The notes under the pieces: generated by a model
The model's input: the letters and a program-made list of their open reading frames with translations, nothing else
The model's database searches: none
Told to the model about the DNA's origin: nothing
Source: a virus
Taxonomy: Duplodnaviria; Heunggongvirae; Uroviricota; Caudoviricetes
Length of the DNA stretch: 19,419 bases
IMG/VR virus record: IMGVR_UViG_2645727562_000003
Location: 1-19,419 of that record
Strand: one strand, 5' to 3'
Program-made: the position numbers and the translations under genes
In this document: positions 1,961-11,507 of the stretch, one piece after another
Layout: each line of letters begins with the position of its first letter
How positions within the stretch are numbered: the stretch's first letter is position 1

Positions 1961-2022
1961 ATCAATAATACCTCGTAAGTTTTGTTGATACCGAAGCCCT
2001 GACTGTTCCCGCAGTTGGGGCT

Positions 2023-2226
2023 TCAACTTTCTGCTCTATCAGTTATATCTTTCCCTTCGTATACTTCACCTATATTGCTAATGCTGGCAGAACATCCAAG
2101 ATGCTTGTATCTTATGATGTCCAACACGCAGTCACTACACAGCATCCGACCTGTTTCTTTAGAGTAAATGTATGTTTGATCAGCGTCTGATTCGCTAATG
2201 CCGCAGAAACAACATTCTTTACTCAT
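2023..2226 (-). CDS. Cys-rich small protein (67 aa), possible zinc-ribbon; unknown function
   Basis: ATG start overlaps the arc-like stop as ATGA (translational coupling). Cys pattern CCxC ... CxxC (C5, C6, C8, C30, C33). Confidence 0.45.
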
Positions 2227-2749: not shown

Positions 2750-3001
2750 ATGGCTAGAGATGATCCGCACTTTAACTTCCGTATGCCTTTGGAAGTAAGA
2801 GAAAAATTGAAATTAAGAGCCGAGGCTAACGGAAGGTTAATGAACTCTGAGTTATTACAAATCGTTCAGGATGCGCTATCAAAACCATCACCGATTGCAG
2901 GTTACCGTGACGAAGCAGAACGCATGGCTGATCAGCAAGCAGAAATTGTTAAGAAGATGGTGTTTGAAACGCTGAAGGATTTGTACAAAAAACCCACCTG
3001 A
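2750..3001 (+). CDS. mnt: Mnt repressor (83 aa)
   Basis: MARDDPHFNFRMPLEVREKLKLRAEANGRLMNSELLQIVQDALSKPSP... is near-identical to P22 Mnt as I remember it. GGAG SD about 8 nt upstream of ATG 2750. Confidence 0.85.
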   Translation: MARDDPHFNFRMPLEVREKLKLRAEANGRLMNSELLQIVQDALSKPSPIAGYRDEAERMADQQAEIVKKMVFETLKDLYKKPT

Positions 3002-3017
3002 AGGTGGGTTAATTTTT
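2991..3017 (+). terminator. Rho-independent terminator after mnt
   Basis: Stem aacccacc (2991-2998), loop tgaa, stem ggtgggtt (3003-3010), then aattttt. The mnt stop codon sits in the loop. Confidence 0.6.
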
Positions 3018-3100: not shown

Positions 3101-3280
3101 ATGGCGAAAAAACCAGGTGAAAACACAGGAAAAAACGGCGGAATATACCAAGAAGTTGGCCCACGCGGCGGTAAGAAAGACAATTTTGCAACCGTCAAGG
3201 ACAACGAAAGGCTTCCACCAACAACAAAGCCAGGTCATGGCTGGGTATTGGATAAGCGAACTCCAGACAGCAAAAAGTAA
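3101..3280 (+). CDS. YjzC-like small protein (59 aa)
   Basis: MAKKPGENTGKNGGIYQEVGPRGGKKDNFATVKDNERLPPTTKPGHGWVLDKRTPDSKK; the pattern KPG..NGG.Y.EVG ... P.T ... W resembles the YjzC-like family from memory. ATG 3101 preceded by GAGG at 6-nt spacing; the track start at 3086 is TTG. Followed by its own terminator. Confidence 0.6.
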   Translation: MAKKPGENTGKNGGIYQEVGPRGGKKDNFATVKDNERLPPTTKPGHGWVLDKRTPDSKK

Positions 3281-3286
3281 TAATCA

Positions 3287-3308
3287 AGCCGGGTCACTCC
3301 GGCTTTTT
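3287..3308 (+). terminator. Rho-independent terminator after the YjzC-like gene
   Basis: agccgg(g)-tcac-ccggct followed by tttt at 3305-3308. The hairpin overlaps the stop codon of the convergent minus-strand gene. Confidence 0.55.
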
Positions 3309-3659
3309 GATATGTCGCTCGCAGAACTCAACAAGCCTGCTCATTAAGTAGCAGTAAGTCTCGTTGGCTCTTCCTGGTTCAACATCAACACCTACCCTTG
3401 AGCAGATATCGAATGCCATGTGAGCGCACTCATGGGCAATAGTAGATAGTTTGCCATTGAACACGCCTATCACATGCAAAACACCATTCTCGCTACTCAC
3501 TGTATGAGACGCTCCGTTGGCGTCCGAGTCATGCACGTCAACGCCAAGTTTTTGATGCAGGCGTTGCCATTCTGGAAAGTCTCTACAAAACACAATTATA
3601 CCGCTCTCAAAGAGCGGAACGAGCATCTTTGGTACGTTTCCAATGTTAACTTTTTTCAT
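3294..3659 (-). CDS. Small HExxH-motif protein (121 aa), putative minimal ImmA/IrrE-like zinc metallopeptidase
   Basis: Motif TIAHECAHM followed 13 residues later by E-PGR-ANETYCYLM, resembling the ImmA/IrrE HExxH ... ExxANxFxxxLL signature. ATG 3657-3659 with AGGA at 4-nt spacing; the track start at 3698 is TTG with no SD. Overlaps an antisense plus-strand reading frame (3474-3689), so the assignment is tentative. Confidence 0.45.
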   Translation of the reverse strand: MKKVNIGNVPKMLVPLFESGIIVFCRDFPEWQRLHQKLGVDVHDSDANGASHTVSSENGVLHVIGVFNGKLSTIAHECAHMAFDICSRVGVDVEPGRANETYCYLMSRLVEFCERHIKKPE

Positions 3660-3689: not shown

Positions 3690-4079
3690 GTGAAGCAATT
3701 TCTTACTGCTATGTTCTTATTCATATCTTTTGGGGCTACAGCAGAGTGCTGGGTCGTTGGAGATATGCGCGGAATAAGCTATTCAGAACGAAATAATTTC
3801 CATCCGGAAGAAGATGGTTTTAGTGGAACATTCATCATTAAGACAAACGGTGAAGATGCCAGCATCACATATTCTGGGACAGATGCGGGCGGCATGGCTT
3901 ACAAAGCATTGTCTAAAAACTCCATCATAGGAATCGGCGCGAATGGCGAAACTCAACGCGTTATCGACTCATGGGTAATACATCCTACTGGAACAGTTTT
4001 AATGTCAAAAACCATTTCCGGTTATGGAAATATGGATTCAACCAAAGCTTTTGTTGGAAAAGTAAAAAGAAAATGTTAG
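3690..4079 (+). CDS. Secreted/periplasmic protein (129 aa precursor, predicted signal peptidase I signal peptide), unknown function
   Basis: AAGGAGG (3678-3684) 5 nt upstream of GTG 3690. N-terminus MKQFLTAMFLFISFGATA followed by ECWVVG is a canonical signal peptide (basic n-region, hydrophobic core, A-x-A site). Mature protein is Gly/Ser/Thr-rich with Cys at both ends. The track's 201-aa version from ATG 3474 lacks an SD and runs antisense through the HExxH gene. Confidence 0.55.
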   Translation: MKQFLTAMFLFISFGATAECWVVGDMRGISYSERNNFHPEEDGFSGTFIIKTNGEDASITYSGTDAGGMAYKALSKNSIIGIGANGETQRVIDSWVIHPTGTVLMSKTISGYGNMDSTKAFVGKVKRKC

Positions 4080-4103
4080 CGATTGAATCCAATTTCCCAT
4101 ACG

Positions 4104-6014
4104 TTACTGCTGTGTTGCCTCAGTGGCAAGCAGCGGCCTGATGGCATTCGCAGCGTTATTCAGCGTTCTTTCATAGGCTGGCGTTCCTGCTTTGGTGTTT
4201 GCCAGACGTAAGAGAGCATTCCTTGCTGCTTTGGACTCATACAAGCGCATGATTGCACCGAAACCAGATTCAAGCGCCAGTGTTGCCCCAAGAGTCGCAG
4301 TTGCGCCAATCGTCCTTATCCTGTTGGCTTGCGATTGCCCTGTCTGAGTTACAACATTTGCGATGTCTGACCTTGCTGTTTGCTGTAGAACTTCATGAAG
4401 AGCATCAAGCTCTTTCATGTGTCTCCCACTGAATATCGTGTTATAGATCTGACCGTCAGATTGCGACTTCAACTTATTTAACTCGGTAAGAAATTTTGTT
4501 GGCGAGTCTCCTGCCTTTTCTGCAATCTTGCTAATATAAGCAGCACGCATAGCGTTCTTTCCATCTTCACTAAGAGCAGGCCATATCCTCTTAATATCTG
4601 ATGGTTTTCTGCTGAATACAACGCTGTTTATTAGCTCTGGAGTAAACTCTTTTTTAGCTTTGTTGAGATTGTTCGCAATCCTTTTATTGAGAACCTTATT
4701 GAATACGTTGGAGTAGTCAGAGTTTGCTTTGACGTATCTGGCAGCCTCTCCAGCCCCCAAATACCGTGCTGCGTTATTCCTCAAATCTGAACCCATTGCC
4801 CTCTCCACGGCATCAGTTGCGGCTTTCGCGCTATTAGGAAAAACCATGGCATCTCCCTGAATACTTTCCCTTAATGCTGACCGCAACTCTCTCAATAGTC
4901 CAAAATCTACATCTGGTTTAGCAAGTTCTTCTCGCAAATCGGATAGCCCGCGAATCAAATCCTTATTTGCCACTTTCCCAAGCCTGTTAGCCCTGGTAAG
5001 CACGTTGTCGATAACCTTAATGGATTTTGATGTGTCAACAGGTGTATCTCCCATTTTAGTTGTAATGTCTTCAATAACGCTTCCGGCTGAATCCTTCCTT
5101 GACTTCAGAGAACCATACAGATCGTCAACAACAACTGATGGGCTATATTCACCATATTTCTCAAGCTGTTTTTTAACTAGCTGACTTCTTTTTGCATACT
5201 GCTCAGCTCGCTTTGAGCCTGTTCCCAGCAAAGCCCCCTCAGCATCCTGAGTAAGACCACGAGTGAAAGCATTTTTCGGCGGGATTACATCAGATGTCAT
5301 TGGTGTCACGCCCATCGATTCTGATGTGGCAATTTTCTTCGCCACTTCTGGTGCAATATCACCTTTAAAGGCAGTTATTCCACGCTCAAGCCCTTTTGCA
5401 ACAGTATTAACAGCACCACCTGTTAGCATGCCAACACCTATATCTGTTGCCAGTTTTCCCGCATCATTTTTCTCACTGTTTGCGGCGAGCGATCCGACTG
5501 CGTTTTCTGCCAGAAGACGGGTTGCGCCTTGAGTAATTCGACCAGCAAGTGTTGGCGCCTGAGTTGAAGCGCCGCCAACGCCAACAGTAGCCAGGTAAGG
5601 CAATGCCTCCGCAAACACCCTACCTTCTGTCGTTTGTGGAGTCAGAGCACCTTGCTGAAGTCCAAACGCCTGCTCTAATCCCTGAGTTGTTACTCGTGGC
5701 GCTGGTTGATATGTTCCATCGCCAATACCGAGTTTACCGCCAGCCCATGCCGCCGCGCTTGTTACAGCATCGGCAACTGATGCTGGTATATTTGCCACAT
5801 TTACACCAGCCTGCACCAGTCCGCGACCAGTTTCTTTTACTGCTTCGCCGAGGTCAGACATAAATCCATCTTGCTGTTCTACAGGCTGCTTTTGGTTTTG
5901 AGTTGGTTGATTACTGGAGGACAGAATCTGAGCAATGCGACGCGCTCCTTCTGTATCGCCTGCCGCATCAGCGTTCCTTAATGCTGTCATCAACTGTTCA
6001 CGACTATAGGCCAT
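4104..6014 (-). CDS. Ejection (DNA-transfer) protein, P22 gp16 homologue
   Basis: 636 aa, Ala/Gly-rich, last of the three ejection genes in conserved order. GGAGGG SD; start overlaps the gp20 stop as TAATG. Confidence 0.8.
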   Translation of the reverse strand: MAYSREQLMTALRNADAAGDTEGARRIAQILSSSNQPTQNQKQPVEQQDGFMSDLGEAVKETGRGLVQAGVNVANIPASVADAVTSAAAWAGGKLGIGDGTYQPAPRVTTQGLEQAFGLQQGALTPQTTEGRVFAEALPYLATVGVGGASTQAPTLAGRITQGATRLLAENAVGSLAANSEKNDAGKLATDIGVGMLTGGAVNTVAKGLERGITAFKGDIAPEVAKKIATSESMGVTPMTSDVIPPKNAFTRGLTQDAEGALLGTGSKRAEQYAKRSQLVKKQLEKYGEYSPSVVVDDLYGSLKSRKDSAGSVIEDITTKMGDTPVDTSKSIKVIDNVLTRANRLGKVANKDLIRGLSDLREELAKPDVDFGLLRELRSALRESIQGDAMVFPNSAKAATDAVERAMGSDLRNNAARYLGAGEAARYVKANSDYSNVFNKVLNKRIANNLNKAKKEFTPELINSVVFSRKPSDIKRIWPALSEDGKNAMRAAYISKIAEKAGDSPTKFLTELNKLKSQSDGQIYNTIFSGRHMKELDALHEVLQQTARSDIANVVTQTGQSQANRIRTIGATATLGATLALESGFGAIMRLYESKAARNALLRLANTKAGTPAYERTLNNAANAIRPLLATEATQQ

Positions 6015-11477: not shown

Positions 11478-11500
11478 AATAAAAATGGGGCCGAAGCCCC
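11478..11500 (-). terminator. Intrinsic terminator (probably partial) immediately after the coat gene
   Basis: Minus-strand RNA GGGGC-UUCG-GCCCC (UUCG tetraloop) followed by AUUUUUAUU; lies 7 nt after the coat stop and before the next gene's SD. Confidence 0.6.
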
Positions 11501-11507
11501 ACCAAAA

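Follow-up and report, generated by a model that had tools for sequence, protein, structure and literature searches.

Tail-to-tail junction of gene 16 and a secreted-protein gene in a P22-like virus: a probable left boundary of the ant moron within the late operon

The 24-nt spacer that separates the convergent stop codons of a gene 16 homologue and of a gene for a secreted protein (the moron gene) most probably forms the left boundary of the ant moron and lies inside the late operon instead of ending it. For the stretch of viral DNA analysed (the window, 19.4 kb), the analysis showed the gene order, the homologies and the geometry of the junction, and it showed that a terminator is missing at the junction and that terminators occur elsewhere along the route of late transcription (Table 1). 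All long ORFs of the window lie on the minus strand, in the order and with the sizes of the late region of P22-like phages (Lederbergvirus), and the gene order from terminase to gene 16 matches that of P22 and Emek. The gene 16 product matches phrog_770, "DNA transfer protein" (E 2e-209), its relatives carry the Pfam domain Phage_P22_gp16, and the gene 16 stretch has 94.8% DNA identity to Salmonella phage Emek, in which the product is annotated as "injection protein". An earlier note on this DNA had placed the end of the late operon after gene 16. This placement is contradicted by the tailspike gene, which starts at 969 in the same orientation as gene 16 (6014-4104), with the accessory region between the two, and whose translation from 969 opens with a P22-type head-binding domain (Pfam Head_binding in relatives). 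Since the late operon runs on to the tailspike gene, a missing terminator at the junction is expected.

Layout of the late region and the ant moron

In P22, the region between gene 16 and the tailspike gene has been named the "ant moron", containing immI (Villafane et al., 2008; PMC2629481). The corresponding region of the window likewise lies between genes 16 and 9 and carries mnt-, arc- and ant-type genes together with sar; its genes are partly opposed to late transcription, and its content varies among otherwise syntenic phages. The arc-orf67-ant block has 92.5% DNA identity to P22 immI, and orf67 (a 67-aa ORF of phrog_7150) lies between arc and ant, its 3' end overlapping sar. The features held in common with P22 comprise the promoter region, ribosome-binding site and GTG of the gene adjoining gene 16 (the slot gene), hkcC, orf59a and its terminator, mnt, arc, sar, ant, t_ant and the tailspike gene. 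Compared with P22, the window has a second mnt-like gene, as does CUS-3 with its two mnt genes, and one ORF more between arc and ant. We infer independent expression of the accessory genes from the PsieA region that is shared with P22.

Table 1. Features of the window, listed from its left end (positions as counted in the window; sequences in the remarks are given for the strand named)
Feature	Position	Strand	Remarks
Tailspike gene, 5' part (gene 9 homologue)	1-969	minus	Runs past the left end of the window
t_ant-type intrinsic terminator	1033-1052	minus	Just upstream of the tailspike gene; GACCCAGCTTCGGCTGGGTT then TTTTTATGCC
Pant-arc-orf67-ant block	1070-2429	minus	Late orientation
ant	~1960-1070	minus	
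sar antisense RNA	1962-2028	+	Rfam RF00262, 69.7 bits
orf67	2226-2023	minus	
arc-like ORF	2429-2223	minus	
Pant-like promoter site	2422-2394	minus	From the promoter scan
Two tandem mnt-like (Arc/Mnt family) repressor genes	2463-2726, 2750-3001	+	phrog_795, phrog_3178
Bidirectional hairpin terminator	2991-3010		After the second mnt-like gene; late strand AACCCACCTTCAGGTGGGTT then TTTTGTACAA; symmetric
orf59a homologue	3101-3280	+	Alignment to P22; phrog_3202; PGAP CDS in E. coli prophages
Hairpin terminator	3286-3305		Good in the + direction, ends the orf59a unit; poor tail in the late direction (GATTATTACT)
hkcC homologue (HExxH gene), 121 aa	3294-3659	minus	First sense ORF after gene 16 on the late strand
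PsieA-like promoter region for the moron gene	3629-3659	+	Inside the first codons of hkcC, opposite strand
Moron gene, 129 aa, signal peptide	3690-4079	+	GTG start at 3690, TAG at 4077-4079; MKQFLTAMFLFISFGATA/EC...
Imperfect inverted repeat	4023-4101		Arms 4023-4041 and 4083-4101, 41 nt between; brackets the moron stop codon
Spacer between the convergent stops	4080-4103	none	24 nt, CGATTGAATCCAATTTCCCATACG; without U-tract, without self-contained hairpin
Gene 16 homologue, DNA ejection/transfer protein, 636 aa	4104-6014	minus	Last virion gene before the accessory region
Ejection-protein genes 7, 20, 16	8102-4104	minus	
Strong intrinsic terminator	11484-11503	minus	Directly after the coat gene; equals HK620 tGP5
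Coat gene	12761-11508	minus	Head-completion genes next
Scaffold gene		minus	Between portal and coat in the gene order
Portal gene	15962-13764	minus	
Small and large terminase genes	17801-15964	minus	
Strong canonical intrinsic terminator	18920-18900	minus	Before the terminase region; equals the Emek terminator after Rz

The convergent stops and the inverted repeat

The positions of the two stops that had been noted earlier were confirmed (moron TAG at 4077-4079; gene 16 TAA on the minus strand at 4106-4104), as was the gap of 24 nt between them. The accompanying statement that no hairpin lies between the stops is correct for a hairpin contained within the spacer and incorrect in that 19 of the 24 spacer bases form the right arm of an inverted repeat. 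Folded alone, the spacer reaches -0.2 kcal/mol in the late-sense direction and -1.4 kcal/mol on the + strand, neither of which is better than shuffled sequences. A consensus terminator scan detected nothing terminator-like near the junction on either strand. Furthermore, a permissive scan over 3900-4300, which accepted every hairpin of -6 kcal/mol or lower with 4 or more U in 8, gave zero sites on the late-sense strand between 4215 and 3900 and, on the + strand, just large-loop structures with poor tails, while the Rfam search found nothing at the junction, its sole match being sar at 1962-2028. The junction has neither a G+C-rich short-loop hairpin nor an adjoining 3' U-tract and does not qualify as an intrinsic terminator. 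The spacer is identical in Emek and in three E. coli prophages (L016-L018), and in the haplotype represented by prophages L004-L008 it differs at two bases (4080 and 4095). The Emek junction as a whole is identical, and the authors of the Emek genome, who searched for terminators by MFOLD, annotated none at the junction and two nearby.

The arms of the inverted repeat are complementary at 16 of 19 positions, the left arm sitting in the last codons of the moron gene, and the repeat is the best non-palindromic one in the window for arms up to 80 nt apart. Within the late-sense RNA, its arms pair as a helix of 8+11 bp with a 37-nt loop (-23.2 kcal/mol, z = -3.4; other strand z = -1.9) that begins 3 nt past the gene 16 stop. 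The stem is A+U-rich and the loop spans 37-41 nt. Since no U-run follows the helix on either strand (on the late strand the first U5 run lies 11 nt past the stem), it is not a canonical intrinsic terminator.

It is conceivable, although unlikely, that the repeat has a function in the late transcript as an RNA element, be it a 3' protective stem, a site for RNase III or a partial brake, which would bound a stable virion-gene mRNA or tune the transcription that reaches the tailspike gene. Its rank among the repeats of the window, its start just behind the gene 16 stop and the lower z-score on the late-sense strand agree with such a role, as does the report that the ant moron influences how often late polymerases reach the tailspike gene (PMC2629481). 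Both known haplotypes also keep all 19 pairs on the late-sense strand, where the two stem substitutions are wobble-compatible. Nevertheless, the known variation amounts to just two distinct sequences, which display no two-sided covariation for the stem and are separated by no shuffle control, and one arm is under coding constraint. The two haplotype differences were also considered as a single compensatory A:T to G:C change, which was rejected, because the predicted fold aligns them as two separate changes, each one-sided and compatible with wobble pairing. By GC-adjusted energy, the helix ranks just 22nd of 3222 sliding windows, which is unusual and not extreme. A functional element is further disfavoured by its distribution: a repeat scan found none spanning the junctions of HK620, CUS-3 or epsilon34, and folds of HK620 (an hkcB-type junction), of L013 (in which a 62%-identical moron is convergent with gene 16) and of L015 gave no junction-spanning stem. 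The repeat is thus not general to the junctions of the P22-like phages compared.

Two observations were made on related junctions. The sieA/gene 16 junction of P22 (L002, 5669-5767) contains an unrelated long-range stem (-31.4 kcal/mol, z = -3.1), present on the sieA-sense strand only and formed between the 3' coding end of sieA and the 3' end of gene 16; the ungapped repeat finder missed it. An E. coli prophage remnant (L020, 3001-3405), belonging to a protein cluster of 642 member sequences (P0012), has retained the row tailspike-mnt-orf59a-hkcC together with most of the moron gene. Similarity to the window breaks off at 4024|4025, where the left arm of the repeat has run for two bases, and gives way to host genes (GntP permease). 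The inverted repeat may have been a deletion hotspot in this remnant, or the position of the breakpoint may be a coincidence.

The slot gene, hkcC and their relatives

The moron protein belongs to phrog_2651 and gave no Pfam match above the cut-off. Its structural model is a confident small all-beta barrel (pLDDT 86), for which the structural neighbours are generic barrels only, and tblastn matched the protein in Emek and ST-35 only. Cys20 (the second residue past the predicted signal-peptide cleavage) and the C-terminal Cys129 are invariant in the alignment of 7 full-length homologues, which suggests a periplasmic disulfide closing the barrel. Two identities were considered for the protein and rejected, namely SieA (BLASTP E 0.99 against P22 SieA; the model is an all-beta barrel behind a signal peptide) and a homologue of HkcB (the proteins are unrelated). 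In the PGAP annotation the moron gene begins 21 nt later, at ATG 3711, so that the signal peptide loses its charged start.

Upstream of its coding sequence, the moron gene is equipped like P22 sieA. GTG 3690 is preceded by a strong AAGGAGG site, common to P22 sieA, and 3629-3659 is identical to the sieA promoter feature annotated in P22 (BK000583); full function of sieA in P22 needs no more than 85 bp of upstream sequence (PMC10461980). The window and P22 are near-identical from orf59a through hkcC up to the shared CTAAGGAGGTTGGTGTG and diverge directly after that GTG. Therefore, the PsieA region and ribosome-binding site of P22 are here fused to a different coding sequence, and the three-helix inner-membrane SieA of the P22 slot is replaced by an unrelated secreted beta-barrel protein.

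The occupant of the slot next to gene 16 differs among P22, HK620, CUS-3, epsilon34 and prophages L004-L008, and in BTP1 the slot holds no gene. In P22, the prophage-expressed sieA converges with gene 16 at a distance of 22 bp, compared with 24 bp here, and no terminator is annotated between them. HK620, CUS-3 and epsilon34 carry hkcB (unrelated to the moron gene of the window) against gene 16 with a gap of 0 bp, and in HK620 the junction is followed, as in the window, by hkcC in late orientation and by the "bidirectional terminator tORF59A". The same moron gene, 24-bp spacer and gene 16 end (95-98% identity) occur in Emek, in ST-35 and in 19 of the 5426 complete E. coli genomes; in Emek, other ORFs replace hkcC beyond the moron start. 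The five prophages L004-L008 have an 87%-identical moron with the same 24-bp gap, while the 62%-identical moron of L013 faces gene 16 across 17 bp. From these comparisons, the tail-to-tail arrangement is the rule in the P22-like group. The junction is the already described gene 16/sieA arrangement of P22 with a different slot gene, and the cassette has already been deposited.

The neighbourhood of the moron homologues is variable. In L004-L008, the secreted protein has a different signal peptide and is encoded by the third gene of a row of mnt, a Rap1a-family gene (PF18602, a type VI immunity protein family) and the secreted-protein gene, and hkcC is absent there. Among more distant homologues, that of L003 adjoins a resolvase gene, and a real terminator is present there, while that of L015 faces an ssb gene. 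Therefore, the gene moves as an independent cassette.

The HExxH gene was assigned to the HkcC family, as its product is 97.5% identical over 121 aa to HK620 HkcC and matches phrog_1365 (E 2e-38). It is also 97.5% identical to an ORF of P22, which P22 records annotate inconsistently, and hkcC is named among the P22 ant-moron genes by Villafane et al. (PMC2629481). Identification with the P22 ORFan pid was rejected, since pid lies elsewhere in the late region (40357-40998 of NC_002371). H76, E77, H80 and E100 are invariant among 18 homologues (H76-E77-x-x-H80 motif), and in the confident HkcC model (pLDDT 89) the HExxH residues and E100 are located on two helices; Pfam gave no match above the cut-off for HkcC. 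HkcC may be a metallopeptidase of the zincin/gluzincin type, in which the zincin fold presents HExxH on one helix and a Glu, the third zinc ligand, on a later one. Paralogues that are 38-40% identical occur in phages L, ST64T, ST104, epsilon34 and g341c; their location differs from that of hkcC here, being close to the right end of the genome map, directly ahead of the terminase genes, on the late strand. More distant relatives occur in lambdoid mEp phages and in a Pseudomonas phage. The hkcC ATG is preceded at 4 nt by AGGA, a consensus scan found no promoter-like site on the hkcC strand between 4100 and 3660, and just 30 bp upstream of hkcC are conserved, the cassette beyond being sieA, hkcB or the secreted-protein gene. 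Expression of hkcC from the late transcript is plausible, because late orientation, the AGGA site, the lack of a detected upstream promoter, the 30-bp conservation and the late-strand paralogues all point in this direction; sense orientation alone does not prove useful late translation.

The slot may also be viewed from the lysogen, in which the moron transcript could run antisense into the 3' end of gene 16 and act against incoming related phages, as STnc6030 of BTP1 does. BTP1 has no moron, and its tailspike gene follows 155 bp after gene 16. There, this transcript of the 16-9 interval is expressed by the prophage and overlaps the gene 16 homologue at its 3' end in antisense; it excludes superinfecting BTP1, and the mutations that escape it lie in the overlap (PMC7067206). 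The two other + strand units of the window, mnt and orf59a, end in canonical terminators (2991-3010 and 3286-3305), and of the three only the moron unit lacks one; terminators are therefore tolerated on the late path. The slot, moreover, classically holds the exclusion gene sieA. However, STnc6030 is non-coding and starts inside the tailspike gene, and BTP1 has no ant moron; the likeness to the window is one of position only. In addition, Rho should act on an antisense RNA that is not translated and halt it shortly past the stop codon, and the exclusion exerted by P22 SieA is fully explained by the protein (PMC10461980). An antisense function of the moron transcript is therefore quite unlikely. 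An extended form, in which the conserved 19-bp repeat that uses the spacer and a deliberate lack of a terminator together make the junction a two-way RNA device (antisense RNA of the lysogen against gene 16 of superinfecting phages, combined with a lytic stem marking or protecting the gene 16 message at its 3' end), is also quite improbable.

Transcription across the junction

The view of the junction as an internal point of the late operon leaves the question of how polymerases travel beyond it. The earlier note had derived read-through from the missing hairpin, which is a weak argument, as the late transcript must cross the terminators at 18920-18900, 11503-11484, 3010-2991 and 1052-1033. 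The hairpin at 3286-3305 corresponds to the "mnt terminator" of P22 and to the bidirectional tORF59A of HK620, and that at 1033-1052 to the annotated ant terminators of P22 and Emek. With canonical terminators inside the late path, read-through therefore rests on Q-type antitermination and not on a missing hairpin. The Q gene and late promoter of the phage from which the window derives lie outside the window; Emek, the closest complete relative with this junction, encodes a Q of the lambda type together with a qut site that departs from the P22 site by one base. That late transcripts, antiterminated by Q/gp23, cross the region to express the tailspike gene is taken from the P22 literature, in which PLate transcription is described as crossing immI to the tailspike gene (PMC2629481; 10.1101/2020.10.05.325894; PMC12111858). 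The direction of read-through proposed in the earlier note, antisense over the moron gene (4079-3690) and sense into the HExxH gene (3659-3294), agrees with the architecture and with this literature, even though the reason given for it does not hold.

On this basis, a late transcript from a Q-antiterminated promoter outside the window would follow the minus strand, first over the packaging, head and ejection genes as far as gene 16 and then for another ~3.1 kb up to the tailspike start at 969. Along this path it would contain the moron gene in antisense, hkcC in sense, orf59a and the two mnt genes in antisense, and arc, orf67 and ant in sense. The hairpins at 3305-3286, 3010-2991 and 1052-1033 would be passed by the late polymerase, because Q-modified polymerase ignores terminators. 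The cassette abutting gene 16 would be expressed in the prophage from the P22 PsieA promoter region and with its ribosome-binding site, and hkcC would be translated from the late transcript. Late transcription would hinder the moron gene by occluding its promoter at 3629-3659, by collisions of polymerases and by formation of double-stranded RNA; this arrangement makes the antisense silencing of the moron gene that the earlier note had predicted plausible.

A true end of the late operon after gene 16, whether Rho-dependent or hairpin-assisted, with the tailspike gene and hkcC served by their own promoters or by Pant, is very improbable. The gene 16 stop is followed on the late strand by 444 nt without translation, which include a stretch with C in excess of G (C/G about 2) at 3823-3706; such an untranslated stretch could attract Rho on unmodified polymerases, while C/G composition proved uninformative for Rho-utilisation-like stretches. 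In lambda, Q-modified polymerase is also resistant to Rho-dependent terminators, which weighs against a Rho-dependent end of the late transcript. The stable helix directly past the gene 16 stop might lower read-through, but it lacks a U-tract, and much better terminators inside the operon must be read through. Separate expression of the tailspike gene could draw on the Pant-like promoter upstream of it at 2422-2394, and BTP1 has several mapped transcription start sites around its tailspike gene (PMC7067206); nevertheless, the consensus scan found no promoter-like site between t_ant (1033) and the tailspike start (969), and the P22 literature has PLate polymerases reaching the tailspike gene across this region. 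For unmodified polymerases, termination after gene 16 (by Rho or with the help of the stem) is possible.

With the junction read as the left edge of the ant moron, annotation of P22-like prophages should not close the late operon at gene 16 and should treat the accessory genes of the 16-9 interval as a nested, oppositely regulated cassette. The junction itself would be new for the biology of phage transcription only if the inverted repeat or the antisense read-through were functional. The beta-barrel protein and the late-oriented HkcC are reasonable candidates for functional study, the practical value being small. For the P22-like group, the slot adjoining gene 16 is a swap site for prophage-expressed envelope proteins, which include SieA, HkcB and, in the present case, a periplasmic beta-barrel.
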